Shown piece by piece: positions 11,414 to 31,636 of a stretch of DNA of 64,000 nucleotides. Origin of the DNA: an uncultured bacterium (GTDB taxonomy: Bacteria > Verrucomicrobiota > Kiritimatiellia > PWTM01). The position numbers were made by a program, and so were the translations under genes. The stretch spans positions 1,277,864 through 1,341,863 of the forward strand of contig CAVUUJ010000002.1 in assembly GCA_963744655.1 (NCBI GenBank). The letters run 5' to 3'. The notes under the pieces are model-generated. The model worked only from the letters and a program-made list of their open reading frames with translations, had not been told where the DNA came from and did no database searches. Position 1 is the stretch's first letter. Each line of letters starts with the position of its first letter.

Positions 11414-12904
11414 TCAGTAGGCGTGCAGGCGGAAGCGGACGGCGGTGACGGTGTCGCCGAACAGGGCGCCGGTGCCGTGGGCGGTCTCGTCGCCGTTGAG
11501 CCGGCGGGCAGCGCGCCAGGCGCCGTCCTCGAACCGGCCCTCGTCGAGCCAGAGCAGCTCGGCGGTCGCGCCCGGGCCGCCGGTCCGCTCGAACGTGAAG
11601 ACGATTCGCTGCCCCACGGCGGTGAAGGTGTCGTCGCCCTCGGCCAGCACCAGCGCGGCGCCGGGCACGGCGGTCTCCCCCGTCGGACCCCGGGTGCGGG
11701 CCCGGAGGCGCCAGCCGTCGAGCTCTGCGTCCCACGTCTCCTCGTCCGCCTGCTGCAGGAAGCCGGCGAGCCGCCCGGCGCCGCGCGCGGCGGCCAGCCG
11801 CGCGCCCATGGGGCGGAGCAGGCGGTAGACCGCTCCGAGCGGCGCGTCCGCGGGGAGGTCCTCGACGCCGAAGGGCGCGAAGCCGAGCGCCTCGTGGCGG
11901 CCGAGGGCGTAGAGGGCGCGCGCGCCGGCGCCGGCGTCGGCCCTGGACTCCGGGATCAGCAGCGGGTTGCCCAGCCGCGTGTAGGCGGCGCAGTAGCCGC
12001 GGAAGTCGGGGTCGTAGATGTCCGGGGCGACGAAGTCGATGCGCGGCGCCGCGGCCCGCCACACGGGCAGCATGCGCGCGGTCGGCCCGCCGCTGGGGTA
12101 GTCGCCGGCCTGGTAGCCCGGGCCGCGGTCGAGCCAGGCGTTGACGCCCATCGGCAGGTCCCACGCCGCCCGGCCCGCGGCCGCCACCGCGTCCACGTAG
12201 CGGGCGATGTGCCAGGCCATGAAGACCTCGGCGGCGTCCTCCCCGAAGACCGCCTCCCAGCCGCCGGCCCCGCGCAGGGGTCGCAGGGGTTCGGCGAAAC
12301 CGTCGTCCGCCTCCTCGAGCGCGCGGAGCAGCCCGGGCGGCACGTCGCCGCGGAAGGCGGCTTCCGCCGCGGGCGAGAAATCGCGCGGGGTGCCGAGGAT
12401 GCCGACCTCGTTTTCCACCTGCACGAACGGAATCGCCCCGGCCGCCCCCGGCCGGCCGCGCAGGTGCGCCATCACCGCGGCGAAGGCGCGGGCGTCGGAC
12501 TCCCGCGTGGCGGCCTCGAAGCAGGAGAGGGTCCACAGCGCCCTGCCCCCGCGGTCCCGCGCGCGGGGGAACCGCCCGCCGCCGGTCTTCACCCACGCGG
12601 GGGCGTAGCAGGAGATGGCGTTCTTGAAGGCGCCGAACCAGAGGGGGACGAAGCGGAGCCCGCGCTCGCGGCAGAGGTCCAGGGCCGTGTCCGCGGACGC
12701 GAAGTCGAAGGCGCCTTCCTCCGGCTCGAGGAGTTCCCAGTACAGCGGCACGAAGGCCGCGTCGCCGCCGAGCGCGGCGAGCCGGTCGAGCGCGGAAGCG
12801 AGGGTCCCGCGCGAGGCGGCGGCGGAGTTGTGCACCTCCCCGCCGAGCAGCGGCGGCAGCGCGGCCAGGGCCGGCGGCAGCGCGGGGGCGCGGGACGCGG
12901 TCAC
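11414..12904 (-). CDS. GH35-like beta-galactosidase-type hydrolase (GH35 N-domain plus DUF5597-type architecture)
   Basis: GTG start in a GTGA overlap at 12901-12904. Motifs LLGGEVHNSAAAS, FVPLYWELLEPEEGAFDF, LRFVPLWFGAFKNAISCYAPAWVKTGGGRFPRA and FVQVENEVG. The longer track ORF (to 14104) is a shadow extension. Confidence 0.75.
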   Translation of the reverse strand: MTASRAPALPPALAALPPLLGGEVHNSAAASRGTLASALDRLAALGGDAAFVPLYWELLEPEEGAFDFASADTALDLCRERGLRFVPLWFGAFKNAISCYAPAWVKTGGGRFPRARDRGGRALWTLSCFEAATRESDARAFAAVMAHLRGRPGAAGAIPFVQVENEVGILGTPRDFSPAAEAAFRGDVPPGLLRALEEADDGFAEPLRPLRGAGGWEAVFGEDAAEVFMAWHIARYVDAVAAAGRAAWDLPMGVNAWLDRGPGYQAGDYPSGGPTARMLPVWRAAAPRIDFVAPDIYDPDFRGYCAAYTRLGNPLLIPESRADAGAGARALYALGRHEALGFAPFGVEDLPADAPLGAVYRLLRPMGARLAAARGAGRLAGFLQQADEETWDAELDGWRLRARTRGPTGETAVPGAALVLAEGDDTFTAVGQRIVFTFERTGGPGATAELLWLDEGRFEDGAWRAARRLNGDETAHGTGALFGDTVTAVRFRLHAY

Positions 12905-14034
12905 GCCTTCACCCGGGCCAGGTCCGGCCCGCCGCGGCCGAGGCCGAGCACCTCGTGGCGGAGGCGCAGGTAGGCGAGGTAGTTGTCGAACGACACGTCC
13001 ATCGGGCAGCAGTGGTCGAGCGTCGGGAAGTACCCGCCGCGCTCCACGGCCGGGCGGACGCGTTCCAGCTCCGCCCGGATCGCGCCGGGGCCGCCGGTCA
13101 GCCGGTGCTTGTGGATGTTGCCCCACCACAGGGCGCGCTCGCCGTAGCGCGCCTGCAGCTCGTTGACGTCCACGCCGGCCTGCGCCTCCAGGGGCCAGAA
13201 CAGCTTCACGCCGCCGTCGAGCCACGCGTCGAGCAGCGGCCGGATGTCGCCGTCGGAGTCGACCGAGACCACGTCGTAACCGTAGCCGCGCGCGAGGTCG
13301 GCGACGCGGCGGTAGCGCGGCACGACCAGCTCCCGGAAATGCGCGGGATTCATGATCGGCCCGTTCTTGAAGCAGATGTCCTCCCAGAAATGCACACCCT
13401 CGGCGGGCGCGCCGCGTTCGCCGAAGATGCGCACCTGCCGCTCGGCGGCCCGGGCGTGGGTCTCGATCATGTCCTCGAGCCACGCCGGGTCGTCGTAGGC
13501 CATCATGGCGAAGACGTTGAACCCGAGCAGGTCGCGCGGCCGGCCCGCGAGGCTGCCCGCGTCGATCCAGACCGGATGCCCCGCGGCGCGGGCGCGCCCG
13601 GCGACCGCCGCCGCCACCGGGTCGTCCGGGCCGGGCAGCGGCGCATCGACGTCCATCCACGCCTTGTAGCGCTCCCACTCGTCGCGGTCGCGGACGGCGG
13701 GCCGGACCTCGTGCGGGATGGTCTTGTGCGAACCCTTGTTGTCCTGGATGACCGACCCGTCCGCGCGCCGCGTGGTCACGGTGGTTTCCGTCTCCTCGAG
13801 CACGTCCGTCTCGAACAGCGGCGTCCGGGGCGGCGCGTACGAGAGGCGCAGGGGGTAGCGGTCGAGCCCGAACGCCTCGCACCACGCGTCGTAATCGCGG
13901 GGATCGAGGTCGGGACTCAGCCCCTCGCCCTGCCACCGCTCGTAGGCGGCGAGCAGCGGCCCGTGGTCGATGTTCGGCGGCGGCACGCCGGGCTCCCGGC
14001 GGACAAAACGACGGTACTGCTCGCGCGGATTCAC
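12901..14034 (-). CDS. URO-D-superfamily protein (uroporphyrinogen decarboxylase-like TIM barrel), DSDGD subtype
   Basis: 377-aa ORF with balanced composition. Motifs FKNGPIMNPAHFRELVVPRYRRVADL, VVSVDSDGDIRPLLDAWLDGGVKLFWPLE and FPTLDHCCPMDV. Alignable with the 25195..26268 product. Confidence 0.75.
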   Translation of the reverse strand: MNPREQYRRFVRREPGVPPPNIDHGPLLAAYERWQGEGLSPDLDPRDYDAWCEAFGLDRYPLRLSYAPPRTPLFETDVLEETETTVTTRRADGSVIQDNKGSHKTIPHEVRPAVRDRDEWERYKAWMDVDAPLPGPDDPVAAAVAGRARAAGHPVWIDAGSLAGRPRDLLGFNVFAMMAYDDPAWLEDMIETHARAAERQVRIFGERGAPAEGVHFWEDICFKNGPIMNPAHFRELVVPRYRRVADLARGYGYDVVSVDSDGDIRPLLDAWLDGGVKLFWPLEAQAGVDVNELQARYGERALWWGNIHKHRLTGGPGAIRAELERVRPAVERGGYFPTLDHCCPMDVSFDNYLAYLRLRHEVLGLGRGGPDLARVKA

Positions 14035-14185
14035 AACATCCTCCCCGGCGGACTGCGCCCGCTCTCCGCCCCGCCGTCCCCGAACGGGACGCGGCGGGCG
14101 GCACGGACCCTACTACGCGGCCCGCGGCCGGGCAAGGGGCGACGGCGGCGGCTGCGGCCGGGCCGGCGGAGGGTCGGACCGTGGG

Positions 14186-14296
14186 GAGACGGAGAGCGGA
14201 GGTCGGAGACCAGAGGTCGGAGGTCGGAGTCCAGAGGTCGGAGGTCGGAGACCAGAGGTCAGAGGTCGGAGTTCAGAGGGCGGAGGGCGGAGGGCG
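14186..14296. repeat. heptanucleotide tandem array, about 16 units (GAGGTCG / GAGACCA / GAGGGCG)
   Basis: Read directly. It opens with the same GGGGAGACG GAGRGCG lead-in as the 11.1-kb array. Confidence 0.9.
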
Positions 14297-14312
14297 GGGT
14301 CGCAGAAAAGGT

Positions 14313-14371
14313 GGTCCGCGCTGGCCCTCCGCCGCCCCTGGGGCTATGGAGGACAAGCCCGAACGCGGGCA
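14313..14371 (+). repeat. dispersed ~60-nt intergenic repeat (core CCCYGGGGCTATGGAGGA), copy 1
   Basis: GGTCCGCGCTGGCCCTCCGCCGCCCCTGGGGCTATGGAGGACAAGCCCGAACGCGGGCA. Reverse-complement copies lie at 40693-40753 and 46758-46815. Confidence 0.8.
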
Positions 14372-14384
14372 AGGCGAACGGCGG

Positions 14385-14428
14385 AGCGGAAAAGAGAACG
14401 GCCCCGCCGGGTTTCCGGCGGGGCCGTT
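14385..14428 (-). terminator. Rho-independent terminator candidate for the decayed PEP-CTERM gene
   Basis: 14-bp perfect stem AACGGCCCCGCCGG / CCGGCGGGGCCGTT with a GTTT loop (14397-14428). On the minus strand it is followed by CTCTTTTCC. It lies 27 nt past the TAG at 14455-14457. Confidence 0.6.
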
Positions 14429-14454
14429 CGTTGCCGTTCGGCTGCGTTCGCCGT

Positions 14455-15235
14455 CTAGCCGCGGCGGCGGCGCAGGACCAGGGCCGCCCCGCCGAGGAGC
14501 AGCAGGCCCACCGAGGCCGGCTCGGGGATGAGGTCTACTCCATCGTCCAGACCGGCCGGTCTGGTTGTTGGACCACTCGATGCCATACTGCGTATGGCAA
14601 ACTGGTGGTCACGGTTGCCATCGCGTCCGCCCGGCGGATGGCGATGCCGAAGTTCTCGACGGGTTCTGGATCATGCGTCGAAGTCGGCCGCGCGCCCCGC
14701 GGCGGTGTCCCGAGATCGAAGGTGAAGGTGTCGGCGGTAGCGGCACCGCCATCCGCGACGCCATCCGAACTCGGCCGCGAAAACGGACTCGTCGCCGAAA
14801 TGCACCATGGAGGGAGGCGTATCGCCCACGGCGAGGGTGGCATCCCAATCGCGACGTGACGCGGAAGAAGGAGATATCGGCAGATCGCCCGTCGTGGGAT
14901 TGAGCCGAATTCCAGAATCTCATCGTGAGCGTCCAAGCCGAAGCCGCCTTCTGGTCCGTAGCGTCTTGGCCGTCAGGTCCACCTTCTCGTAGAATCCAGT
15001 AGGTCCAGGGTCGTTGGGAAACTGCCCGTCCAGGTAGCCAGATTCTGGCATAGCTGGCCGCCGACCTCCTGCATGAATAGTCTGGTCCTCGATACCGTGT
15101 CGACCTGATCTGACGTCCACCCACAGGCGCCGCGTCGGCGCCGATGCCCGAGTCATAGGTCACCAGCGCGGCCATGGCCCCCGTGCCAACCAGCAGGGCG
15201 GCGGCGGCAACGGCCATCCACTTGCACTTTCTCAT
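14455..15235 (-). pseudogene. decayed PEP-CTERM protein gene (multiple frameshifts)
   Basis: The signal peptide MRKCKWMAVAAAALLVGTGAMA (ATG 15235) and the sorting signal DLIPEPASVGLLLLGGAALVLRRRRG* (stop 14455-14457) are in different frames. The span is 781 nt, which is not a multiple of 3. Protein-like segments switch frame several times between them. GC is locally lower. Confidence 0.65.
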
Positions 15236-15371
15236 CCTCTTCTCCCGTGTTGGGGCCGGACTCCGTCGCCGGCCATCTCTTCGCTCCGAACGAAGGCCCG
15301 AAGCACAGTTCACGCTTGCATATCACCAGAAGCTCCTGTTCCAATCAAGCAGATTCGTGTAATGAAGTGAT

Positions 15372-16517
15372 ATGGATACATCGAAACAAGAAGACCATGC
15401 CGGACGGGCCCGGCCGCGCACGGCGGAGGTGGCGGAGAGGGTGCGCGCGATGATCGTAGAGCGCGGGCTGCGGCCGGGCGGCGCGATTCCGACGCGGCGG
15501 GACCTGGCGGACGAGTTGCGCGTGAGCCTGACCTCGGTGCAACGGGGGGTGGCCCGGCTGGTGGAACAGGGCTTCGTGGCGGTGGACGGGACGCGGCGCA
15601 CGGTGGTGGCGGAAACCCCGCCGCACCTGTACCGCTACGCCGTGGTCTTCCCGCAGGAAACGCGGCTGCTGCTGGAGTCGCCGTTCCTGCTGGCGATGTA
15701 CCGCGCGGCGGCGGACCTGCCCGAGCTGGCGCCGCGCGTCTTCGAGCGGCACGCCCTGCCGGACTACTACCCGGGCGTCGGCGCGGCGCCGTTCGCCCGG
15801 CTGGCCGCGGAGGCGCGGGCGCGGCGGCTGGCGGGCCTGCTCTTCGCAGGCGACGCGAGCCAAGCGACCCGGTACGGCCTGGCCCTCGACGGCGCGGCCG
15901 CCCCCCTCGCCGCGGTATGGTACGAGCGCACGAAGTATCCGAACCCGGCGGCGGTGCTGGTGGACGTGGACTGGGGTTCGTTCGTCGCGCGGGCGGTCGA
16001 CCTGGTGGCCGCCGCGGGGCTGAAGCGCATGGCGATCCTCTGGAACGGCAGCCTGCGCGGCGCGGAGGGCATCACGGAGCGCGAGACCGAGCGCGCGGGG
16101 CTCCGGTGTCCGCGCGGCTGGCAGCAGTTCCCCGGTGCCTACCACCCCCAGCCGGCGCGGCACGCGGTGCGGCTGCTGTTCGAGGCGCCGGCGTCGCGGC
16201 GGCCGCAGGCGCTCGTCGTCGCCGACGACGGCCTGACGGGCGCCGTCTGCCGCGAGCTGGTCGACATGGGCCTCGGCTCCGGCCGCGACCCGCTCATCAT
16301 CTCCCACACCAACTACCCGCGCCCGCAGGGCGTCCACCTGCCGGTCACGTGGCTCGGGTTCGACACGCACGAGTGGTTCCGGACCGCCGTGGCGGCGCTG
16401 GAGGCCCGGAAGCCGGGCGACGCGCTGCGGTCTTGCAGGATCCCGGCGCGCACGCCGGAGGAGGTCGCGGCGGCGGGCGAGGCGGCGCACGCGAACGGCG
16501 CGAGGGGGGCGGCGTGA
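15372..16517 (+). CDS. GntR-type HTH regulator with a LacI/periplasmic-binding-like sugar-sensor domain
   Basis: 381-aa ORF. N-terminal winged helix: VAERVRAMIVERGLRPGGAIPTRRDLADELRVSLTSVQRGVARLVEQGFV. Divergent from the PEP-CTERM pseudogene and first gene of a sulfatase operon. Confidence 0.75.
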   Translation: MDTSKQEDHAGRARPRTAEVAERVRAMIVERGLRPGGAIPTRRDLADELRVSLTSVQRGVARLVEQGFVAVDGTRRTVVAETPPHLYRYAVVFPQETRLLLESPFLLAMYRAAADLPELAPRVFERHALPDYYPGVGAAPFARLAAEARARRLAGLLFAGDASQATRYGLALDGAAAPLAAVWYERTKYPNPAAVLVDVDWGSFVARAVDLVAAAGLKRMAILWNGSLRGAEGITERETERAGLRCPRGWQQFPGAYHPQPARHAVRLLFEAPASRRPQALVVADDGLTGAVCRELVDMGLGSGRDPLIISHTNYPRPQGVHLPVTWLGFDTHEWFRTAVAALEARKPGDALRSCRIPARTPEEVAAAGEAAHANGARGAA

Positions 16518-18094
16518 GCGGCGCGCGCGGAAAGGCGAAGGAGCCGGGCGCGGCGCGCGGGGGCGCGAACCTGCTGGTCGTCTGCACGGACCAGCAGCAC
16601 CCGCTGCTCTCCGGCTTCCGCGGCCACCCGTTCGTGGAGACGCCCCACCTCGACCGGCTGGCCGCGCAGGGCGCGCAGTTCACGCGCGCGTACTGTACCA
16701 ACCCCATCTGCACCCCCAGCCGCATGAGCCTGCTGACCGGGCGCTACACGCACGAGATCGGCGTGCCGAACAACGGCTTCCCGCTCGATCCCGCGCTCCC
16801 CACCTGGCCCCGTCTGCTGGACCGCGCGGGCATCGAGAGCACGATGCTCGGCAAGATGGACCTGTGCGGCGACTACCAGGACGGGGGGTTCACGCACCAC
16901 CGGATCATCCGGCGCCGGGCCGCGCACCCGGCGATGACCGCGGAGCCGCCCTACCGCATGACGGCGCCGCTCCGCGAACGGATGCCCGCGGCCAGCCGCT
17001 CGTGGCGCCCCGTGTCGCGCGCCCTGCGCCACGCGGGGCCGCGCACCCACCGCATCCTCTGCCGCGAGAAGTTCGAGGCGAACGAGATCGACGGCGAGAA
17101 CGACGATTTCCTGGGCAACTACGACCACGACGTCATCGTCACCGACTGGGCCGTGGACGCCCTGAAGGAGAAGGGCGCGGCGCATCGCGCGGGCGGGGCG
17201 GCGCCCTGGGCGCTCTACGTCGGCCTGATCCTGCCGCACGAGCCGTTCACCATCCCCGCCGCGTACTACGACCGCTACTACCCCGACCGCGTCGCCCGGC
17301 CGGTCGACGCCCGCTTCCCCAACCCGGACCTGCACCCCGCCCTGCGGTTCCTGCAGCGGGCCCACGGCACGGGCACGCCGACGGAGGACGACCTGCGCCG
17401 CGCGCTGGCCGCGTACTACGGCATGGTGACCTGCGCCGACGAGCTGCTCGGCCGGATCCTCGGCGAGCTCGAGCGGCAGGGCCTGGCGGAGGACACGCTG
17501 GTGGTCTTCACCTCCGACCACGGCGAGTCGCTCGGCGAGCACGGGCTCTTCTTCAAGAAGTGCAGCTACGAGGGCTCCGCCGGCGTCCCGCTCGTCCTGC
17601 GCGGCCCCGGCGTGCCCGCCGGGGCGCGGGTCGACGCGCCGGTGAGCCTGGTCGACCTGCCGCCCACCCTGCTCCGCGCCGCCGGGTTGACGCCGGGGCC
17701 GGGCCTGCCCGGCATGGACCTGCGGGCCGTCGCCGCCGGCGCGCCGCCGCCGCGCGATTTCGCCTTCGCCGAGTACCATGGCTACTTCATGCGGCACGAC
17801 TGGTTCATGACCGTGCACGACGGCATGAAGTACACGTGGTACAGCGACGGCGAGCGGCCCACGCTGTTCGACCTCGAGCGCGACCCGCACGAGCTGCGCG
17901 ACGTGGCCGCCGACCCCGCCTACACGGACCGGCTACGCGCCTGCCGAGAGCGGCTGCTGGCCGTGTGCGATCCCGGGGCCGAAAGCCGCCGGGCCCGGGA
18001 CCTGCTCGGGCTGATCGGCCCGGACGGCGAGGACTACCTGTGCGGGGAGGCGACGGCGCGCGGGTCAACGCCTGACGGGAGGAAGACGCCATGA
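16514..18094 (+). CDS. Cys-type sulfatase with no obvious signal peptide
   Basis: GTG start in a GTGA overlap at 16514-16517. Motifs NLLVVCTDQQH, NPICTPSRMSLLTGR (CxPxR), VVFTSDHGESLGEHG and FDLERDPHELRD. Confidence 0.8.
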   Translation: MSGARGKAKEPGAARGGANLLVVCTDQQHPLLSGFRGHPFVETPHLDRLAAQGAQFTRAYCTNPICTPSRMSLLTGRYTHEIGVPNNGFPLDPALPTWPRLLDRAGIESTMLGKMDLCGDYQDGGFTHHRIIRRRAAHPAMTAEPPYRMTAPLRERMPAASRSWRPVSRALRHAGPRTHRILCREKFEANEIDGENDDFLGNYDHDVIVTDWAVDALKEKGAAHRAGGAAPWALYVGLILPHEPFTIPAAYYDRYYPDRVARPVDARFPNPDLHPALRFLQRAHGTGTPTEDDLRRALAAYYGMVTCADELLGRILGELERQGLAEDTLVVFTSDHGESLGEHGLFFKKCSYEGSAGVPLVLRGPGVPAGARVDAPVSLVDLPPTLLRAAGLTPGPGLPGMDLRAVAAGAPPPRDFAFAEYHGYFMRHDWFMTVHDGMKYTWYSDGERPTLFDLERDPHELRDVAADPAYTDRLRACRERLLAVCDPGAESRRARDLLGLIGPDGEDYLCGEATARGSTPDGRKTP

Positions 18095-19692: not shown

Positions 19693-19915
19693 GCGCCCCT
19701 GCAGGTGTTCAATATTGCCGTCGCGACGGCCGCCCAAACGAAGGTTATCGCCCCCTCGCGCAACATGAGCTGTCAACCAGTTCTCCTCAGGTAGGAGTCC
19801 CGGCATCCCCCTCAAGAGCGTCTCGGAATAGGCCGTGCTTCTGCCGGAGCACTCGGCATCTCTTCATGCTCCTCTGTGCTTTCGGACATTCACCGCCTTC
19901 CACTGCAGTAATGCT

Positions 19916-19946
19916 TCTCCTTCGACGTCTAACGTCGTCGGAATCC
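19916..19946 (+). repeat. 31-bp perfect direct repeat, left copy (TCTCCTTCGACGTCTAACGTCGTCGGAATCC)
   Basis: An identical 31-mer recurs at 21020-21050. The pair brackets the PEP-CTERM cassette. Confidence 0.9.
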
Positions 19947-20024
19947 GAACGGGCCGGAGGCGCCGGCTGGAGCCGAAGGCCGGCGTAGTCATAAAAGACT
20001 AACACAAATTGGAAAAAAGCACTT

Positions 20025-20053
20025 TACAGTTGGGGGGGGGGGGGGGTAGAAAG
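20025..20053 (+). promoter_or_regulatory. candidate sigma70-like promoter TTTACA-N17-TAGAAA whose spacer contains an uninterrupted G14 run (20034-20047)
   Basis: An A-rich tract lies upstream (AAAAGACTAACACAAATTGGAAAAAAGCAC). The same -35/17-nt G-rich spacer/TA-hexamer layout is seen at 26675-26703 and 29027-29055. Confidence 0.45.
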
Positions 20054-21050: not shown

Positions 21051-21628
21051 TCCTCATCCATGCGTTACGCGGACAATGGGGGCTGAAATGGCCCTTGGAG
21101 CGTTTCTGAGGGCGGGTTCCGGCGTCTCCAAGGCGGTTTGACCGAGAAGGCGCCCGGGGCGGCCGGGCTCGACAGGCTGCTCTCCTTCACCTGCCCACGT
21201 ACGGAAGAGGCGGGCAGGGCGTTCGGCGCCATTCCGGCAGCGGGGTGCCGCCGTGGCCGGGAAGGTCAGGTCTCTCGGATTCCGCCCTTCGCAGGAGCGT
21301 CGCGTTCCGGGCCGCGGCGGCCCGGGTCCGGTGAGCCCGTCGGACCCGGGCACCGGGTGCGGCCGGTCCCCTTCGCCCGCCGTATCGTGCCCCCCGTTCC
21401 GCGCGGCGCCGGCCGCTGCCGGCCGCGGACCCGCAACACCGGGGCCGGCGGCTTTCGGCCCGGGGGCGGTCGGTGGTTGACGTGACCCGCGGGCCGGTGT
21501 TCTGCTTCGCCCGCACGGAGACGGAGACGCGGGGGAGGGCGGGCCTCCCCGGCGAGGCGTGGATCCGGGCCCGGGTGACCCGGCAGGCGCCTCACCTCGC
21601 GCCGATGTGCACAACAGGAGATCGTCCC

Positions 21629-24600: not shown

Positions 24601-25141
24601 GCACCATGGCCCCGACTACACGCCGGCGATGGTGCTGCGCAACTGGGCCATGCGCCGCCTTCACGACATCCGCGCGGGGGCCCTGTACTACAAGAGCGCC
24701 GCCCGGGCCCGGGACTACGAGGCCCTCCTGCTCGGCTTCGGGTACGGCGACGCCGACCGGGTGGCGGAGAGCAACTACTGGGAGCCGGACCCCGCCGTCC
24801 GGGTTGGCGACCCCCGCATCAAGTGGATGGCCCTGACCCGGCGCGACCCCGGCGCGGACCCCTTCGGCCTCCTGCTGCTGCAGAGCTACACCCGTGCCGA
24901 CGCGGTGACCGCGCAGGTGACCCTCCCGGGGGCCGCGGCCCTGGTGGACGTGGAAACCCGCGAGCGCATCGCGGTGGCCGGGGACCGGGCCGCCGTGACC
25001 ATGCCCGCCAATTTCTCGACGCGCATGTTCCTCGCGGTCCGGGATCCCGAACGGGCGGCGAGCCTGGCCCGGTCCCAAGGCATACGGGTGGAGGACCTGG
25101 CGCCGCCCCCTGTCCCGGGGTCGGCCGACGGATCGCCCTGA
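21629..25141 (+). CDS. giant-paralog family member B (N-terminal LamG/concanavalin-like module)
   Basis: Start MALRTALSALLSLLLAGPLFA (ATG 21629, CAGGAG RBS 8 nt upstream). LamG-like block: FWLKSDAGVEVDEQGHVVAWTD...FVLFVAAYDPGTKTLTAYQDGVQVG...FGGEVLEALAYNHAMDRDEV. Family motifs FPFETSSLG..VYPPFTPV, LTFGLMASPGKP and SLYFDNTNP. Confidence 0.8.
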   Translation: MALRTALSALLSLLLAGPLFAAREGEYFREDRNLGQVDRGVDRIEGLLFWLKSDAGVEVDEQGHVVAWTDASGRGHVFEALPGAAHPARLTPGVVRGRPALTFTAAQHKPGGLVNREIGIDPAKGLSLVLLARVAGMDRHAFLVVYGDQYRTKGSLGIGSTGYETYGKSWWRVVADSEELFKSTDDNIAGKGFVLFVAAYDPGTKTLTAYQDGVQVGQRECDLALAPGHPFGIGAEPRGQWSFGGEVLEALAYNHAMDRDEVRALTRAILSRHGLGGAPVSSMAPLLPFAYYPSRNQMEVAVELSPDLLRKAGTTPGEVRVRVRDAGTRAVVATGTVPLDAQARGQALFDVPDLPDGEYAVEYVIGRHVEISPKTFRRIHFPFETSSLGEEHEVYPPFTPVEVEGASVSVVGRTYTLNAFGLFDQVTSLGRPLLAGPIALHGRTGAGPIRWQPGALEGKRVHDDEALFHAACAGSGVRVRTRTVIQEDGCARIDMILKPGADRAEIERLVLEIPFRDREAPLFHYVADNGMRFNYAGRTPRGGTIEWYSEPWDGWVPIRWRVRQPGPDDGVIWTGAHPRQHGNTQRWDHRPFAPYIWLGAEQRGLAFFMESERGFETDYRTPVQQLIRRGDEVILRVEIFQRPVTLTRPRRLTFGLMASPGKPMEERFRTRTLASGIGPVSCWGGWQCSSKYPDHRDWTLVDRIQEIRRRGEYTEADQQWFEAKAEDVRARWPERKINGSSDWLWLTTLFARRAAEKGAGHSGTYFEEHATDPLLPEWQVFQDEWASSEFNRFRERSANWGVFSPSYHDFALYMANEWMRRGVSLYFDNTNPKRCYNERFGPAFRGPDGALRYGISLFGQRRYYRRVYKLLSKWNEKGAPYPVDFTLHITNTQTLPFNTWATATLDLEQRAHTLNPEFFPPETEMTVAELTAGRGRIVTERARERHAAREEKARRAGYQLPWPPDYTRTVTFGRQVGAIPLALDFVSGHSRHHGPDYTPAMVLRNWAMRRLHDIRAGALYYKSAARARDYEALLLGFGYGDADRVAESNYWEPDPAVRVGDPRIKWMALTRRDPGADPFGLLLLQSYTRADAVTAQVTLPGAAALVDVETRERIAVAGDRAAVTMPANFSTRMFLAVRDPERAASLARSQGIRVEDLAPPPVPGSADGSP

Positions 25142-25194
25142 ACGCGCCGGGGCCGACCGGCGCGTCCCCCTGGCGCCGGAGAAAGGATGTGTGC

Positions 25195-26268
25195 ATGAAC
25201 GTCGCCGAACGCTACCTGGCTTTCATGAGGTACGAGACGGTGGACCGGCCGCCGCTCGTCCTGCCCGGCGGGATCTTTCCGGTGACCCGGCGGCGCTGGG
25301 AGCGGGAAGGGCTGCCCGCGGGGGTCGACCTCAACGAGTTCTTCGGCGGCGAGCCCATGCCCGTCCGGCCGCTGGCCCTCGACACCCTGCTCCGCCCGCC
25401 CTTCGAGGAAGAGATCCTGGAGGAAACCGGCGAGTTCGTCGTGAAGATCGACCAGCACGGCGTGAAGTGCCGGAACTTCAAGGACGAGACCTCGATGTCC
25501 GAGCATCTCGAGTATCCGGTCAAGGGACCGGAGGACCTGGCCTGGCTGCGCCGGCGTCTCGACCCCGCCGCGCCCGGCCGCATCGCGCCCGACTGGCTTG
25601 AACGGGCGCGGGAGAGCCGGGCGCGCGGGGTGCTGACACAGATCAACGGCGGCATGTACTTCGCCTTCCTCAACGAGCACATGGGCACGGAGGCGGCCCT
25701 CGTGGCCTACTTCGACACCCCCGAACTCGTTCACGAGGTCAACGAGCTGCAGTGCCGCCTCTGCGAGCAGGCCATGAACACGGCGCTGCCCCGCTTCAAG
25801 CCCGACCGCATCGGCTACCACGAGGACATGGCCTACAAGAACGGCAGCATGATCTCGCCGGCCATGTTCCGCGAGTTCATGACGCCCTACTACAAGCGGG
25901 TGACGTCGATCACCTCGCGGCATGGCCTCGACCATCACCTGATGGACAGCGACGGCGATATCCGCGAGCTCATCCCGCTCTGGCTCGAGTGCGGGATCAA
26001 CGCCTTCGCCCCGCTCGAAGTGGCCGCCGGCATGGACGTCGTGGCGCTGCGCGAGGAATACGGCCCGGCGATCAGGATGGAGGGCGGGTTCGACAAGCGC
26101 ATCCTCGCCTCGGACAAGCCCTCCATCCGGCGCGAGTTCGAGCGGCTGGCGCCGGTAATCGACGGCGGCGGCTACCTGCTCAGTTGCGACCACACCGTGC
26201 CGCACAACGTGCCGCTGGAGAACTACGCCTACCTCGTGGAACTGATGAAGGTCCATTTCGGCATGTGA
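25195..26268 (+). CDS. URO-D-superfamily protein, DSDGD subtype
   Basis: ATG 25195 with a GGAGAAAGGA RBS. Motifs YKNGSMISPAMFREFMTPYYKRVTSI, HHLMDSDGDIRELIPLWLECGINAFAPLE and LLSCDHTVPHNV. Confidence 0.8.
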   Translation: MNVAERYLAFMRYETVDRPPLVLPGGIFPVTRRRWEREGLPAGVDLNEFFGGEPMPVRPLALDTLLRPPFEEEILEETGEFVVKIDQHGVKCRNFKDETSMSEHLEYPVKGPEDLAWLRRRLDPAAPGRIAPDWLERARESRARGVLTQINGGMYFAFLNEHMGTEAALVAYFDTPELVHEVNELQCRLCEQAMNTALPRFKPDRIGYHEDMAYKNGSMISPAMFREFMTPYYKRVTSITSRHGLDHHLMDSDGDIRELIPLWLECGINAFAPLEVAAGMDVVALREEYGPAIRMEGGFDKRILASDKPSIRREFERLAPVIDGGGYLLSCDHTVPHNVPLENYAYLVELMKVHFGM

Positions 26269-26674
26269 CCACGCGAAGGCGGCCACGGCCACCGGCCGCC
26301 TGCCGGCCCGGGGCGAAGCGCGAGCCCGGCGCCCGGGGCCTCACCCCGCCATCCCCCGCGGCGGACAGGGGGGGCGTGACGGGTCAGGCCGTGGCACGTG
26401 ATCACGCCTCGCTCGCGGCTCCGGGGCGGCGCGAATCGTGGCGGCGCGGCGCGTGCCCGCCGGTTCGGTGCCGGGAGCGTCGCGCTGTCCGCCCGGCCCC
26501 CGGCGCCGCGCTCCGCAACTCAAGGCCCCGGCTCGGGAGCCCCCCCACCACCGGAGGCGGGCGGACATCGAAAGCCGCTACGCCGGCTTGCCCCCGAACG
26601 CCGCCAGGGCCGAACAGGCCGCGAACAACGGGCTAGTCCATTGGGACTAGGGGCAAGAAAATGCAGAAAGGGGC

Positions 26675-26703
26675 TTGACCTGGATGGGGGCGGGGGGTAA
26701 GAA
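26675..26703 (+). promoter_or_regulatory. candidate promoter TTGACC-N17-TAAGAA (G-rich spacer TGGATGGGGGCGGGGGG)
   Basis: Same architecture and downstream leader (CATCGTAATCGGTGGAGAGGTTCTGTTCGGCATG) as the 20.0-kb cassette. Confidence 0.4.
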
Positions 26704-26766
26704 GGGCATCGTAATCGGTGGAGAGGTTCTGTTCGGCATGCTGCCGGAACAAGAAGGAAGGGGAGA

Positions 26767-27657
26767 ATGATGAAGGTGACTATGTTTCGTCGAGTGACGG
26801 TTGCGGCGTCGATCGCCCTGTTCTGCGGTCTCATGTGGCCCGCGACGGCGGAGGCCACGACCGTCGGCTGGTGGCGCTTCGAGGACGGTGCGTTCCAGGA
26901 GGATTCCGGTCCTAACAACTTTGATCTGACCGTGCCCGCGGGTGACAACAACCCGGTCCAGGTCACTCCCTTGCCGGGCAGCGGCGACGGCAGCGCGTTC
27001 CAGAATCCGATTGCCAAGACCGGCGACTCCAATACCGGCCTTGCCCAATTCACGCCCAGCAGTTCTCGACCCCGGCTGCGTTCAGCGCCGGTTCCTCGTC
27101 GCTCTTCGCACTCGGCGCCGACTACACCTTCGAATTCATGTTCAACCGGGATACCGACGCCTACGGGTTCCTGTTCGCCCAGTGGACGGACGGCGGCGGA
27201 AGTGCCGGTAACACATTCGGCTTAGCCGTCGGCCAGGATGGCTCGGACTACATACGTGTGGCTCGGGGCAGTTCGTCCGCGAACCTCACGGCCGCGGGCG
27301 CGTTTACCACCGGCACGGACTACTATGTCGCCCTGGTCCGGGACGGCACCGCGAATACGGACCTGCTCTACCGCCAGGACCTGACCAACGGTGGGGCCCT
27401 GCAGGTGTTCGATGTCACCGCTGCCACGGCCGGCCAAAACAAGGTCATCGGTGACACGGGTCTCGGATGTGATCATCGGCGCGCTGCGGACGGGGTCTAC
27501 CTCCACCGACCTTCCGTTCAACGGGTTGATCGACGAGCTGCGCATCTCGGACACGGCCCTCGCGCAGAGCGAGCTCCTGGTCGTCCCCGAACCGGCGACG
27601 CTCGGCCTGCTGGGCCTGGCGGGTGTGGCCATGATCCTGCGCCGCCGCCGCGGCTGA
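26767..27657 (+). pseudogene. PEP-CTERM/LamG-like protein gene, copy 1; two compensating frameshifts
   Basis: The N-terminus (MMKVTMFRRVTVAASIALFCGLMWPATAEA...) and the C-terminus (..VVPEPATLGLLGLAGVAMILRRRRG*) are in the same frame. The homologous middle part (27138 ORF: MFNRDTDAYGFLFAQWTDG...) is in another frame. Relative to copy 2 there is a 1-nt deletion at 27061-27070 and a 1-nt insertion at 27449-27460. Confidence 0.7.
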
Positions 27658-27680
27658 CGAACGGCGACAGCGCTGCATTC

Positions 27681-27720
27681 GCGCGGGCCCTCCCGATCGG
27701 GAGGGCCCGCGCTCTTTCTC
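27681..27720 (+). terminator. Rho-independent terminator candidate
   Basis: 14-bp perfect stem GCGCGGGCCCTCCC-GATC-GGGAGGGCCCGCGC followed by TCTTTCTC. Confidence 0.65.
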
Positions 27721-27952
27721 GTCCGGGTGCGGGGGATTGCCCGGCGCGGCCCCGCCCCTCTGCGCCAAGAGGACGAACCGCGAAGAGACGCGAACGGGAC
27801 GGGGGGCCTGGGGAACGGGACATCGAAGGCCTGCGTCGCGTCGTCGCGGTGCAGGCGCGCGGCGGCCGGCCTGCCGCGGACGCATGTCCCGATCGCGGAG
27901 CCGCGTAATCAGCACAACACACTTCCTGACAGCACGGCATGGCTTGGGCAAG

Positions 27953-29002
27953 ATGGCGCACATGGAGCACGTGCGGGTCACGGACGACGAGCGGGGCGTT
28001 CTGCGCGGGCTGGCCGCGCGCGTGGCGGAGCTTGCCGCTGACCCCGCGCAGGAAGCGAAGCGCGAGGCGGTGCGCGCGCTGAACCGGCTCGACCCCGTTC
28101 CGCCGCGCATCTACTGCTTCCCGGAGGCGGCCTGGCTGGAGGCGATCCCGCCGGCCTCGCTCGCCTGTGCCGGCCCGCTGCTCCGCGGCTGGGAAACGCG
28201 GCTTCGCATGGCGATCTACACCGCCGAGGTGCTGCGCGACGACCAGCCGGTGGACGCGGTCTTCAACCTGCCGTGGCACGGGGGCACGACGGGCTGGGGG
28301 CTGGAGGCGGACGTGCGCGCGACGGGCCGGGGCGAGGCGTCGGTCTACTACCTCCACCCCTATTCCGGCTACCGCCTCGCCCGCCCCTCCGACGGCGGCG
28401 CGGTGCACTACGACCCGCCGCTGCGCGAGCACGCGGACCTCGACAAGCTCGGCGCCCCGGAGGTCCGGGTCGACCGCGAGGCGTCGGCGCGGCAGCTCGA
28501 CCTGGCGCGCGAGCTTTTCGACGGCCTGCTCGAGGTCCGCCGCCGCGGCGGCTGGTGGCCGCTGCTCGGCGGCCTCTCCCAGGCCGCCGTGACGCTGCGC
28601 GGCGCGGACGCGCTGATGCTGGACCTCTACGACGACCCGGCGTGGGTGCGCGCCTACCTCGGCCGCCTCGCCGAGGGCCACCACGCCCTGCTCGACCGGC
28701 TCGAGGCCGAGGGTTTCCTCACGCTCAACAACGGGTGCGAGTGGATCCACACGGGCGGGATCGGCACCTCGGACGAGCTGCCCGCGGCGGGGTTCGACCC
28801 CGCGCGGCCGCGCTGCGCGGACCTCTGGGGCGGCGTGGAGAGCCAGGACCTCGTGGGCATCTCCCCCGCGCTCTTCGAGGCCCTCCCCGGGGCCGCCCAC
28901 CACCGGAGGCGGGCGGACATCGAAAGCCGCTACGCCGGCTTGCCCCCGAACGCCGCCAGGGCCGAACAGGCCGCGAACAACGGGCTAGTCCATTGGGACT
29001 AG
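27953..29002 (+). pseudogene. truncated, chimeric duplicate of the 30302..31636 URO-D-like gene
   Basis: Identical to the full copy through ..VGISPALFE (duplication junction at 28880). It then reads into repeat-derived sequence ALPGAAHHRRRADIESRYAGLPPNAARAEQAANNGLVHWD*. Confidence 0.75.
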
Positions 29003-29026
29003 GGGCAAGAAAAAGCAGAAAGGGGC

Positions 29027-29055
29027 TTGACCTGGATGGGGGCGGGGGGTAAGAA
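29027..29055 (+). promoter_or_regulatory. candidate promoter TTGACC-N17-TAAGAA (duplicate of 26675-26703)
   Basis: Identical hexamers and spacer. The same conserved leader follows. Confidence 0.4.
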
Positions 29056-29118
29056 GGGCATCGTAATCGGTGGAGAGGTTCTGTTCGGCATGCTGCCGGA
29101 ACAAGAAGGAAGGGGAGA

Positions 29119-30006
29119 ATGATGAAGGTGACTATGTTTCGTCGAGTGACGGTTGCGGTGTCGATCGCCCTGTTCTGCGGTCTCATGTGGCCCGCGACGG
29201 CGGAGGCCACGACCGTCGGCTGGTGGCGCTTCGAGAACGGTGCGTTCCAGGCGGATTCCGGTCCTAACAACTTTGATCTGACCGTGCCCGCGGGTGACAA
29301 CACCCCGGTCCAGGTCACTCCCTTGCCGGGCAGCGGCAACGGCAGCGCGTTCCAGAATCCGATTGCCAAGACCGGCGACTCCAATACCGGCCTTGCCCAA
29401 TTCACGCCCAGCGGTGCTACGACCCCGGCTGCGTTCAGTGCCGGTTCCTCGTCGCTCTTCGCACTCGGCGCCGACTACACCTTCGAATTCATGTTCAACC
29501 GGCCTGCCGAAACTTACGGGTACCTGTTCGGCCAGTGGACGGACGGCACAGGTGCCGGTAACGTTTTCGGCTTCGCCGTCGGCCAGGGTGGCTCGGACTA
29601 CATACGTGTGGGTCGGAACGCTAATGGCGTGAACCTCACGGACGCGGGCGCGTTTACCACCGGCACGGACTACTATGTCGCCCTGGTCCGGGACGGCACC
29701 GCGGATACGGACCTGCTCTACCGCCAGGACCTGACCAACGGTGGGCCCCTGCAGGTGTTCGATGTCACCGCTGCCACGGCCAGCCAAGACAAGGTCATCG
29801 GTGACACGTCTGCGAAAGTGATCATCGGCGCGCTGCGGACGGGGTCTAGCAGCACCGACATTCCGTTCAGCGGGTTGATCGACGAGCTGCGCATCTCGGA
29901 CACGGCCCTCGCGCAGAGCGAGCTCCTGGTCGTCCCCGAACCGGCGACGCTCGGCCTGCTGGGCCTGGCGGGTGTGGCCATGATCCTGCGCCGCCGCCGC
30001 GGCTGA
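29119..30006 (+). CDS. PEP-CTERM sorting-domain protein with a LamG/concanavalin-like body
   Basis: 295-aa intact ORF. Signal peptide. Motifs GADYTFEFMFNRPAETYGYLFGQWTDG, TDYYVALVRDGTADTDLLYRQD and FSGLIDELRISDTAL. C-terminus VVPEPATLGLLGLAGVAMILRRRRG*. Confidence 0.85.
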   Translation: MMKVTMFRRVTVAVSIALFCGLMWPATAEATTVGWWRFENGAFQADSGPNNFDLTVPAGDNTPVQVTPLPGSGNGSAFQNPIAKTGDSNTGLAQFTPSGATTPAAFSAGSSSLFALGADYTFEFMFNRPAETYGYLFGQWTDGTGAGNVFGFAVGQGGSDYIRVGRNANGVNLTDAGAFTTGTDYYVALVRDGTADTDLLYRQDLTNGGPLQVFDVTAATASQDKVIGDTSAKVIIGALRTGSSSTDIPFSGLIDELRISDTALAQSELLVVPEPATLGLLGLAGVAMILRRRRG

Positions 30007-30029
30007 CGAACGGCGACAGCGCTGCATTC

Positions 30030-30069
30030 GCGCGGGCCCTCCCGATCGGGAGGGCCCGCGCTCTTTCTC
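30030..30069 (+). terminator. Rho-independent terminator candidate (duplicate of 27681-27720)
   Basis: Same perfect 14-bp stem and TCTTTCTC tail. Confidence 0.65.
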
Positions 30070-30301
30070 GTCCGGGTGCGGGGGATTGCCCGGCGCGGCC
30101 CCGCCCCTCTGCGCCAAGAGGACGAACCGCGAAGAGACGCGAACGGGACGGGGGGCCTGGGGAACGGGACATCGAAGGCCTGCGTCGCGTCGTCGCGGTG
30201 CAGGCGCGCGGCGGCCGGCCTGCCGCGGACGCATGTCCCGATCGCGGAGCCGCGTAATCAGCACAACACACTTCCTGACAGCACGGCATGGCTTGGGCAA
30301 G

Positions 30302-31636
30302 ATGGCGCACATGGAGCACGTGCGGGTCACGGACGACGAGCGGGGCGTTCTGCGCGGGCTGGCCGCGCGCGTGGCGGAGCTTGCCGCTGACCCCGCGCAG
30401 GAAGCGAAGCGCGAGGCGGTGCGCGCGCTGAACCGGCTCGACCCCGTTCCGCCGCGCATCTACTGCTTCCCGGAGGCGGCCTGGCTGGAGGCGATCCCGC
30501 CGGCCTCGCTCGCCTGTGCCGGCCCGCTGCTCCGCGGCTGGGAAACGCGGCTTCGCATGGCGATCTACACCGCCGAGGTGCTGCGCGACGACCAGCCGGT
30601 GGACGCGGTCTTCAACCTGCCGTGGCACGGGGGCACGACGGGCTGGGGGCTGGAGGCGGACGTGCGCGCGACGGGCCGGGGCGAGGCGTCGGTCTACTAC
30701 CTCCACCCCTATTCCGGCTACCGCCTCGCCCGCCCCTCCGACGGCGGCGCGGTGCACTACGACCCGCCGCTGCGCGAGCACGCGGACCTCGACAAGCTCG
30801 GCGCCCCGGAGGTCCGGGTCGACCGCGAGGCGTCGGCGCGGCAGCTCGACCTGGCGCGCGAGCTTTTCGACGGCCTGCTCGAGGTCCGCCGCCGCGGCGG
30901 CTGGTGGCCGCTGCTCGGCGGCCTCTCCCAGGCCGCCGTGACGCTGCGCGGCGCGGACGCGCTGATGCTGGACCTCTACGACGACCCGGCGTGGGTGCGC
31001 GCCTACCTCGGCCGCCTCGCCGAGGGCCACCACGCCCTGCTCGACCGGCTCGAGGCCGAGGGTTTCCTCACGCTCAACAACGGGTGCGAGTGGATCCACA
31101 CGGGCGGGATCGGCACCTCGGACGAGCTGCCCGCGGCGGGGTTCGACCCCGCGCGGCCGCGCTGCGCGGACCTCTGGGGCGGCGTGGAGAGCCAGGACCT
31201 CGTGGGCATCTCCCCCGCGCTCTTCGAGGAGTTCTTCCTGCCTGTGTTCCGGCCCGTCGTCGAGCGCTTCGGCCTCGGCTGCTACGGCTGCTGCGAGCCG
31301 CTGCAGGACTGGCTGCCGGCGCTGCGTACGATCCGCAACCTGCGGCGCGTGTCCGTCTCGCCCTGGGCCGACGTGGCGGCCTGCGCGGAGCGCATGGGCC
31401 CGGACCTTGTCTTCTCGCGCAAGCCGTCGCCGACGCCGCTCTCCACCGGGCGGGTGGACGGGGACGCCATCCGGCGCGAGTTGGAGGAGACCTTCCGCAT
31501 CGCGAAGGCGAACGACTGCCGGGTGGAGGTCATGATGAAGGACTTGCAGACCGTGCGCGGCGATACCGCGCGCCTGCGCCGCTGGGTGGAGCTGGCGCGG
31601 GCGGCGCGCGCCGCGGTATACGGGGAGTCGGCATGA
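30302..31636 (+). CDS. distant URO-D-superfamily-like protein (GCYGCCEP subtype)
   Basis: ATG 30302 (MAHMEHVRVTDDERG...). Motif QDLVGISPALFEEFFLPVFRPVVERFGLGCYGCCEPLQDWLPAL matches the ISPxxFxEFxxP block of the other URO-D-like paralogs. ATGA overlap with GH116 at 31633-31636. Confidence 0.65.
   Translation: MAHMEHVRVTDDERGVLRGLAARVAELAADPAQEAKREAVRALNRLDPVPPRIYCFPEAAWLEAIPPASLACAGPLLRGWETRLRMAIYTAEVLRDDQPVDAVFNLPWHGGTTGWGLEADVRATGRGEASVYYLHPYSGYRLARPSDGGAVHYDPPLREHADLDKLGAPEVRVDREASARQLDLARELFDGLLEVRRRGGWWPLLGGLSQAAVTLRGADALMLDLYDDPAWVRAYLGRLAEGHHALLDRLEAEGFLTLNNGCEWIHTGGIGTSDELPAAGFDPARPRCADLWGGVESQDLVGISPALFEEFFLPVFRPVVERFGLGCYGCCEPLQDWLPALRTIRNLRRVSVSPWADVAACAERMGPDLVFSRKPSPTPLSTGRVDGDAIRRELEETFRIAKANDCRVEVMMKDLQTVRGDTARLRRWVELARAARAAVYGESA

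Follow-up and report, generated by a model that had tools for sequence, protein, structure and literature searches.

Four genes of the uroporphyrinogen decarboxylase (UroD) superfamily, here called A to D, and a truncated copy of gene D have been found in a 64-kb stretch of DNA (the window) from an uncultured bacterium of the Kiritimatiellia (assembly GCA_963744655.1, contig CAVUUJ010000002.1, positions 1,277,864 to 1,341,863). Genes were chosen by the third-position G+C content (GC3) of each reading frame; long spurious open reading frames (ORFs) are frequent in the window because its G+C content is 73%. The first-pass annotation had counted four URO-D-like genes and one truncated duplicate, and all five reading frames are supported at their coordinates by the GC3 frame analysis; family membership was assessed with hidden Markov models (HMM) for A, B and C and with profile and fold comparisons for D. 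These features are the following:

4752-7604, minus strand: gene A, a single ORF of 950 codons that encodes a UroD-like N-terminal domain and a Cys-type sulfatase
12901-14034, minus strand: gene B, 377 amino acids (aa), Pfam URO-D, with the motifs FWEDIC, VDSDGD (13246-13263), WPLEA and LDH
25195-26268, plus strand: gene C, 357 aa, Pfam URO-D, with the motifs YHEDMA, MDSDGD (25942-25959), PLE and CDH
30302-31636, plus strand: gene D, 444 aa, with GCYGCCEP at 31277-31300, a UroD-like barrel by fold and profile
27953-29002, plus strand: truncated copy of gene D, whose first 309 codons or so are those of D, after which the frame enters the next repeat unit and ends

The UroD-like genes show a GC3 of 0.93-0.95 and are conserved over their full length at 50-85% identity in many lineages, and they are therefore under selection.

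Placement of the proteins in the UroD superfamily

The Pfam URO-D model (PF01208, clan URO-D_CIMS; cut-off 23.9 bits) matched gene products A (residues 159-378, E 1.2e-11, 44.6 bits), B (E 1.2e-9, 38.2 bits) and C (E 2.3e-13, 50.4 bits). Searches with D in Pfam, NCBIfam and the PDB sequences gave no match, and nothing relevant was found among the PDB sequences with D, the D family profile or the A domain. The D family profile was aligned with the C family profile at a probability of 91.7% (hhalign, E 7.8e-7), and AF2 models of C and D were compared with known folds. The C model (pLDDT 93.4) matched 2INF (E 1.6e-11) and the MtaA of M. mazei (4AY7, E 8.1e-11) with TM of about 0.6. The top PDB folds for the D model (pLDDT 93.0) were likewise HemE and MtaA (E 5.5e-7 to 1e-4, TM about 0.46-0.59), with 6W2O at E 5.5e-7 and 4AY7 at E 2.3e-6, and these folds were matched more strongly by C than by D. 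Because of the profile-profile match between D and C, and of the confident models of both with HemE and MtaA as top folds, D is placed by prediction in the UroD-like barrel superfamily at the fold level. Placement by HMM (A, B and C) and by fold and profile (C and D) thus puts the proteins inside the URO-D fold.

The genes had been described as an expansion of paralogs, a view that was not borne out. The full-length sequences of B and C share 31% identity (E 2e-41), and A and D can barely be aligned with them, in short stretches only. The four proteins are cytoplasmic members of four old, uncharacterized subfamilies of UroD/MtaA/MetE barrels that lie together in this locus, with no recent expansion.

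The curated NCBIfam models of characterized members were scored far below their cut-offs. For the MtaA/CmuA models TIGR01463 and NF004889 (cut-offs 235-244 bits), the A domain reached 33.9 and 22.9 bits and C 15.9 and 14.6 bits, with no match for B and D, and the identification of A-D as true MtaA or CmuA was rejected. The HemE equivalog TIGR01464 (cut-off 302.95 bits) gave 14.5 bits with C and no match with A, B or D, and no heme or cobalamin pathway genes were present among the genes of the window, in agreement with the earlier remark that none of the genes lies in a tetrapyrrole context. HemE was rejected on both grounds. That the genes are ordinary uroporphyrinogen decarboxylases of the heme pathway, or decayed copies without function, is suggested by the name of the Pfam domain, by the truncated copy at 27953-29002 and by the disruption of a neighboring giant gene; set against these scores, the absence of tetrapyrrole genes nearby and the signs of selection given above, this explanation is extremely improbable.

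Motifs at the position of the MtaA zinc site

The zinc site of MtaA consists of His-x-Cys and a downstream Cys, and H-x-C-G is the zinc-binding His-x-Cys motif of MtaA-type enzymes (references in PMC10418091). An alignment that included A, B, C, their relatives and three H-x-C-G paralogs (two from locus L023 and one from L005) revealed that D-[SC]-D-G of B, C and relatives, among them those adjacent to corrinoid protein genes, occupies the same columns as H-x-C-G of A. The three motif classes described at this position were found as stated: H-x-C-G in A (IHLCGD, 6762-6779), D-S-D-G in B and C, and C-C-E in D. A shared ISP/NP-xxF-xE-xxP block, which had been attributed to all the genes, is present in B, C and D; A carries a degenerate form only (IGHDLLEEVVLP).

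In the A family, the residues invariant in 36 sequences were D238, D239, H277, C279, G280, D299, E358, N360 and N361. The family has no conserved third cysteine, and the position of the downstream Cys of MtaA is taken by the invariant E358, so that A keeps H277-x-C279-G with Glu358 downstream.

The homolog search with C retrieved 1439 proteins (E<=1e-5), and in the C-family alignment H209, E210, D211, D251, D253, G254, E275, D300, K301, R302, D332 and H333 are invariant. The C model places the invariant positions where successive strands end C-terminally (205-209, 248-251, about 270, 294-296 and about 331), and the C-terminal strand ends form the catalytic face of a TIM barrel. All 80 B/C-type loci taken from species genomes keep (W/H)EDM, D[SC]DG, PxE and DH. 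The E-X14-E-X20-H zinc motif published for the vanillate first methyltransferase (MT1) did not match the conserved residues of C and was not used.

The D family lacks a Pfam model; clustering at 50% identity leaves about 905 representatives at E<=1e-30. Its invariant residues are C330, C331, E332, K374, K413, D414 and T417; in the D model C330/C331/E332, K374 and K413/D414 are located at the C-terminal ends of successive strands. Three D-type genes in tandem, 38-40% identical to D, were observed in a metagenome contig (L109, 1216-5009).

The replacement of His-x-Cys by Asp-x-Asp in B and C, together with the invariant Glu and Asp-His at neighboring strand ends, suggests a hard-metal site, predicted from sequence, at which the oxygen of a sugar could be bound as leaving group. 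A, with H-x-C-G, and D, with Cys-Cys-Glu, seem to have softer sites of the zinc type. A series of motifs from His-x-Cys through Asp-x-Asp to Cys-Cys-Glu at a single position of the barrel would make these proteins a useful case of metal-site retuning in one fold.

Fusion gene A and the tandem repeat at gene D

Gene A is organized as follows (minus strand, one ORF):

residues 1-384 (6453-7604): UroD-like domain, with H277-x-C279-G
13 residues: linker between the UroD-like domain and the sulfatase
residues 398 to about 840: sulfatase (Pfam), with CGPCR at residues 446-450 (6255-6269)

The C-terminal half matched Pfam Sulfatase (PF00884, E 2.6e-46, 158.7 bits) and SGSH_C (E 3.3e-19) and holds C-x-P-x-R, the maturation motif of formylglycine-dependent sulfatases, and GC3 is at least 0.9 throughout the junction of the two domains. 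In the last 100 codons or so (4752-5054, minus strand) the sequence is of low complexity and GC3 falls from at least 0.96 to 0.6-0.76; the annotated stop is probably reached by read-through into non-coding DNA. The 120 best-matching homologs found with the N-terminal domain have PF01208 as their sole domain, and 119 of them have 342-424 aa (the exception, P0359, has 583 aa). As none of these 120 is fused to a sulfatase, the fusion was rejected as a conserved architecture; UroD-like and sulfatase genes as separate neighbors recur in relatives. The GH123_N-like giant gene upstream of A (7601-10967, minus strand) is broken, with a frame change near 8400-8550 and an in-frame stop near 8104, and the C-terminal GH123_N match (7601-8056) and the middle match (7818-10967) lie in different ORFs. 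It is either a pseudogene or the product of sequencing errors.

The truncated copy of D is part of a tandem direct repeat (26534-31229, plus strand) of two 2.35-kb units, 26534-28880 and 28888-31229, with the junction at 28880/28888. It has neither the C-C-E motif nor the last four strands of the barrel. The units are 97.6% identical over 2350 columns (blastn), and each contains a PEP-CTERM/LamG-like gene, a perfect 32-nt palindrome and the 5' 930 bp of gene D. All 56 differences fall within 26534-27521, in the PEP-CTERM/LamG gene, and the 1.36 kb at 27522-28880 are identical. Of the two copies of the PEP-CTERM/LamG gene, that of unit 2 (29119-30006) is intact and that of unit 1 (26767-27657) has frameshifts at G runs. 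A very recent duplication and an assembly or polishing artifact fit these data equally well. The G+C-rich palindrome GCGCGGGCCCTCCCGATCGGGAGGGCCCGCGC (27681-27712 and 30030-30061), located just past the PEP-CTERM gene and about 240 nt 5' of each D start, looks like a terminator hairpin.

Genomic context in the window

Each UroD-like gene lies beside a glycosidase gene, as the first-pass annotation had noted. The start of A overlaps the stop of the GH123_N-like fragment (7601-7604), the stop of B and the start of the DUF5597/GH42-like gene share 4 nt (12901-12904), and so do the stop of D and the start of the GH116 gene (31633-31636), the genes of these last two pairs being translationally coupled; C starts 54 nt 3' of a GH123_N-like giant. 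The neighboring genes are the following:

11414-12904, minus strand: beta-galactosidase-like gene (DUF5597 1.2e-29, weak Glyco_hydro_42 6.5e-4)
16433-18094 and 18091-19692, plus strand: two cytoplasmic-type sulfatases (Sulfatase 1.4e-45 and 5.4e-41), between B and C
21473-25141, plus strand: GH123_N-like/LamG giant, 1222 aa (GH123_N 5.6e-10, Laminin_G_3 1.2e-5)
31633-34290, plus strand: GH116 glycosidase without signal peptide (Glyco_hydr_116N 9e-41, GH116 catalytic domain 1.6e-31)
34287-35843, plus strand: SASA-type carbohydrate esterase with signal peptide, coupled to GH116 (SASA 3.9e-9)
37430-39784, minus strand: double reductive-dehalogenase (RDH)/QueG-like protein, 784 aa, two halves with two 4Fe-4S motifs each

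A GntR-type regulator and PEP-CTERM proteins are also encoded between the UroD-like genes. Signal peptides were found in the giants, the SASA protein and the product of 2990-4696, and none in A, B, C, D, the GH116 glycosidase or the two sulfatases at 16433-19692. A cytoplasmic location of A-D would be expected for oxygen-sensitive corrinoid chemistry.

The protein encoded at 37430-39784 matched the NCBIfam RDH model TIGR02486 in two stretches (8.1e-26) and QueG (3.6e-13), both below cut-off, and its PDB matches were PceA (2e-7), NpRdhA (9e-5) and QueG (6e-4). The RDH/QueG superfamily consists of cobalamin and Fe-S enzymes, and this protein is a possible cobalamin-dependent partner of the UroD-like genes. 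The earlier statement that no corrinoid protein is present in the window consequently stands for carriers of the MtaC type and needs to be qualified for this superfamily.

Two further observations concern giant genes. The overlapping ORFs 52424-54454 and 51018-52427 (51018-54454, minus strand) match successive parts of one 1246-aa GH123-like protein of locus L009, and a giant paralog therefore appears split in the window. Imperfect short direct repeats, 86-88% identical and with offsets of about 33 and 59 nt, occur at 11078-11268, between a giant and the beta-galactosidase-like gene.

Distribution and neighbors of related genes

Neighbors within 6 kb were analyzed for 80 B/C-type loci fetched with the C-family profile; for the D type 80 loci were surveyed, and neighbor counts refer to the 76 that have neighbors. 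The closest B/C-type relatives (74%) belong to metagenome-assembled genomes of Victivallales and Lentisphaeria, and members of the family also occur in Kiritimatiellae, Armatimonadota, Chloroflexota, Planctomycetota, Bipolaricaulota and Bathyarchaeia. Beside B/C-type genes were found UroD paralogs (17 loci), GFO/IDH/MocA (8), sulfatases (7), GH4 (6), small corrinoid proteins (5, or 6 after HMM search), ATP-binding cassette (ABC) permeases (4), GH36 (4) and GH123-like proteins (3). D-type genes were accompanied by ATPases of CUT2 sugar ABC transporters (14 loci), UroD-family proteins (12), Peripla_BP_4 sugar-binding proteins (9), CUT2 permeases of the BPD_transp_2 family (8), zinc alcohol dehydrogenases (Zn-ADH, 5), GFO/IDH/MocA (5) and sugar transporters of the major facilitator superfamily (4).

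The association with glycan genes recurs in relatives. Glycan-related neighbors include GH4, GH36, GH29, GH38, GH123-like, GH116, GH1 and sulfatases, and sugar-related ones GFO/IDH/MocA, xylose-isomerase-like barrels, PfkB and CUT1/CUT2 sugar ABC transporters. In L009 the gene order is B ortholog (61% identical), sulfatase and C ortholog, and the arrangement of a giant and a UroD-like gene seen at C is found in L009, L051 and L057. L005 carries a GH116 gene, 50% identical to that of the window, 3.7 kb from the D ortholog, which is followed by an H-x-C-G paralog and by a 349-aa RDH/QueG-like gene homologous to 37430-39784. The locus of the D ortholog P0133 resembles the window: UroD, sulfatase, Fe-S protein, two sulfatases, the D ortholog, GH29 (fucosidase) and, further on, SASA and UroD, with SASA-like genes flanking the D ortholog. 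The Fe-S protein amid these sulfatases is similar in size to the 349-aa homolog of L005.

Corrinoid proteins and activases at related loci

A small corrinoid protein of about 210 aa (B12-binding and B12-binding_2 domains) is encoded at 6 of the 80 B/C-type loci and at 2 of the 80 D-type loci. The fullest set was found in L137, a 7-kb metagenome contig that begins with GH1 and continues with a corrinoid protein (DxHxxG), a D-x-D-G protein 37% identical to C, a C-C-E protein 37% identical to D and a RACo activase in which the Fer2, linker, middle and C-terminal domains are all present (3.4e-84). As judged from these sequences, L137 is a complete four-component corrinoid methyltransferase system that follows a glycosidase gene, with both families in the methyltransferase slots. 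In L161 a UroD-like gene and a D-type gene are followed by a partial RACo gene, which is cut off by the contig edge.

L023 (Victivallales) contains an operon on one strand, its genes separated by no more than about 60 nt or overlapping slightly, that encodes a C-like protein (53% identity), a B-like protein (36%), two H-S-C-G paralogs and a corrinoid protein of the MtgC/MtbC type (E 1e-51 with the MtgC model). The corrinoid protein gene directly adjoins the B/C-type gene in L061, L067, L070 and L073. RACo-like pieces were detected in L135, and weak ones in L023 and L024. L135 (a D-type locus) holds at 12914-16597 a RACo-like gene, a corrinoid protein gene and a homocysteine S-methyltransferase gene close together, a gene set that hints at methionine synthesis as one methyl sink.

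In the neighbor-joining tree, the corrinoid-linked loci are spread over three distinct parts of the B/C family, so the link is no peculiarity of one branch; L023 and L024 branch as sisters of the C-containing clade, and L067 is the closest to B among the 80 B/C-type loci. A UroD-family gene lies beside the B/C-type gene in 17 of 80 loci and beside the D-type gene in 12 of 76. The partner of the D-type gene is a D-x-D-G protein in L137 and an H-x-C-G protein in L155 and L145, and since D is paired with different types of UroD partner, a role as common second methyltransferase would fit.

Proposed function

The first-pass annotation had proposed corrinoid-dependent methyltransferases, an idea that gains comparative-genomic support from L137, L023, L061, L067, L070 and L073, although more than 90% of the loci lack a corrinoid protein nearby. 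Proteins B, C and D, and less firmly A, are probably components of corrinoid-dependent methyltransferase systems recruited to glycan breakdown, and a probability of roughly 55% is given to corrinoid-dependent methyl transfer, in which they would provide the methyltransferase half of a demethylase system. In the mechanism proposed, the Co(I) of a small corrinoid protein would receive the methyl group of the donor through a substrate-specific methyltransferase (MT1), a second one (MT2) would hand it on to an acceptor, and a RACo-type activase would re-reduce oxidized cobalt. The corrinoid protein and the activase on which A-D would depend, whatever their MT1 or MT2 roles, would be encoded elsewhere in the genome and be common to several methyltransferases.

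The coupling of every UroD-like gene in the window to a glycosidase gene, and the repeated presence of glycosidase, sulfatase, sugar transporter and sugar dehydrogenase genes next to members of these families, make O-methylated sugars the likeliest donors. These sugars would be released from decorated (sulfated, acetylated and methylated) glycans, and A-D may strip their methyl groups without oxygen. Corrinoid-dependent methyl transfer and methylated sugars as donors, taken jointly, fall short of an even chance. A broader and more tentative proposal, unlikely in its entirety, is that the B/C and D types are the two methyltransferases of a previously unrecognized O2-independent corrinoid system that removes sugar O-methyl ethers and is common among uncultured anaerobes that degrade glycans (Lentisphaerota, Kiritimatiellota, Planctomycetota, Armatimonadota, Chloroflexota and Bathyarchaeia), its genes being dispersed, each with its own glycosidase, around one shared corrinoid protein.

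Several results weigh against the assignment of A-D to corrinoid-dependent sugar demethylation. No small corrinoid protein, RACo or cobalamin riboswitch was detected in the 64-kb window, and neither the window as a whole nor the 1.7-kb gap 5' of D yielded a cobalamin riboswitch or another known RNA in the RNA search (gathering threshold; E<=1). No corrinoid protein is encoded in the fetched flanks of 74 of the 80 B/C-type and 78 of the 80 D-type loci, and more than 90% of the related loci have, like the window, neither a corrinoid protein nor an activase nearby. The A-type subfamily was beside a corrinoid protein in none of the 5 distinct loci examined. Scores with the curated MtaA, CmuA and MtbA models are 13-34 bits for cut-offs of 235-600, and the B/C profile matches by sequence in the PDB HemE alone, not MtaA. 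The immediate neighbors of B/C-type genes are very diverse (116 Pfam families in 123 proteins), although rich in glycosidases. Chemically, cleavage of an alkyl methyl ether by Co(I) is harder than that of an aryl ether, and no enzyme that cleaves alkyl methyl ethers with Co(I) was found described in the literature search.

Part of this evidence would be accommodated by UroD-fold enzymes that perform no methyl transfer and carry out in the cytoplasm a metal-dependent or cofactor-free modification of the sugars released by the glycosidases, for example as sugar-acid decarboxylase, isomerase or epimerase, lyase or a new type of glycosidase, the corrinoid link being confined to a few branches. The rarity of corrinoid genes at related loci is in keeping with such enzymes, and the commonest neighbors outside the UroD family (GFO/IDH/MocA, GH4, xylose-isomerase-like proteins, PfkB and Zn-ADH) need no methyl chemistry. 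HemE, the only sequence match of the B/C profile, is a cofactor-free decarboxylase, and strand ends rich in Asp and Glu are also typical of TIM-barrel glycosidases and sugar isomerases; a GH156 fold was matched by the C model, but weakly (TM about 0.33). However, the corrinoid-linked loci occupy three places of the B/C tree, one of them sister to the C clade and another closest to B, the B/C-type and D-type genes of L137 sit between the corrinoid protein and the activase, and UroD-family genes occur in pairs, as in two-methyltransferase systems. This explanation is accordingly held to be possible but doubtful.

Some corrinoid-linked loci point instead to a donor other than a sugar ether, such as methanol, methylated amines or osmolytes, methylthio compounds or methoxylated aromatics; location or regulation together with glycan genes would then be explained by the presence of such compounds in algal or plant biomass. 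In L061 the D-x-D-G protein and the corrinoid protein are joined to an MttB-family methyltransferase and to peptide-type (Opp-type) ABC transport genes, and the former might provide the second methyltransferase activity of a system that does not act on sugars. The cassettes of L067 and L073 comprise two genes each and have no glycan genes around them, the homocysteine S-methyltransferase gene of L135 is close to the corrinoid protein gene, and the characterized MT1 enzymes of the UroD type all use aromatic ethers, halomethanes or thiols. Against such donors, every UroD-like gene of the window is coupled or adjacent to a glycosidase gene, L137 begins with GH1, the D-type loci contain mostly monosaccharide ABC transporters and sugar kinases or dehydrogenases, and the window encodes sulfatases and acetyl-esterases, not transporters for small methylated compounds. 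Corrinoid-dependent methyltransferases acting on such non-sugar donors are therefore considered improbable.

Comparison with known systems and significance

Corrinoid-dependent O-, S- and halomethane-demethylases are supplied by the UroD superfamily, with OdmB, VdmB and CdmB as MT1 and MtaA and MtbA as MT2, some of the MT1 enzymes being zinc-independent (PMC10418091; PMC13222342). In the O-demethylase and halomethane systems (OdmB, VdmB, MtvB and CdmB) the MT1 is also a UroD-fold barrel, in some cases without the His-x-Cys zinc site (PMC13222342). All the components of these systems are cytoplasmic. L137 unites the four of them, with relatives of the B/C and D types, and L023 and L161 contain a part of the set. 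The window differs in having neither a corrinoid protein of this kind nor an activase and in its context, which is glycan breakdown and not the use of aromatic ethers or halomethanes; the leaving group proposed here would be a sugar alkoxide. To our knowledge, the D-x-D-G and C-C-E signatures have not been described for enzymes of the OdmB, VdmB, MtvB or CdmB type.

MtaA, MtbA, MtsA and the bacterial MtaA-like proteins (Mlp) described in gene clusters by Kountz and Balskus (PMC10418091) belong to the same superfamily, and the H-x-C-G motif is kept by A and by several partner paralogs. The Mlp clusters combine several UroD paralogs with one corrinoid protein and an activase, an arrangement resembled by L023, where the RACo-like pieces are weak; identity is far below the 25% that defines Mlps (PMC10418091). 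The third Cys ligand of MtaA, MtbA and MtsA is missing in A, which has the invariant Glu358, and B, C and D lack H-x-C-G. HemE is the best PDB match of the B/C type in both sequence and fold, and shares with it an N-terminal DRPP-like motif and a C-terminal His, but the active-site signature is different, the score is far below the equivalog cut-off and the tetrapyrrole context is absent.

Methyl ethers of sugars block ordinary sugar catabolism. Porphyran and agar, for example, contain 6-O-methyl-galactose, pectins 2-O-methyl-fucose and 2-O-methyl-xylose, xylans 4-O-methyl-glucuronate, and microbial glycans methylated deoxy-sugars. The only characterized route for their removal that we know of depends on O2-dependent P450s, and we know of none for strict anaerobes of sediments, guts or digesters. 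In a literature search, no paper was found on corrinoid-dependent sugar demethylation or on UroD homologs or subfamilies in glycan loci; a paper on a 'novel methyltransferase' of Bathyarchaeia was rejected as a match, as it concerns a different family of about 300 aa. Known sugar demethylation is performed by O2-dependent cytochrome P450 6-O-methyl-galactose demethylases of marine Bacteroidota (PMC6292453). The role proposed here is the same, clearing methyl ethers that block sugar catabolism, and in both cases the genes lie within glycan-utilization loci. The P450s belong to an unrelated family and are oxidative, with release of formaldehyde (PMC6292453), whereas methyl transfer by the present proteins would need no oxygen, and their system would be an oxygen-independent counterpart of the P450s.

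If A-D and their relatives are corrinoid-dependent sugar demethylases, a missing step of anaerobic glycan mineralization would be filled, and cobamide availability and one-carbon metabolism would be tied to glycan breakdown. A function would also be provided for thousands of proteins annotated as 'uroporphyrinogen decarboxylase family' or as hypothetical, including a family that has no Pfam model.

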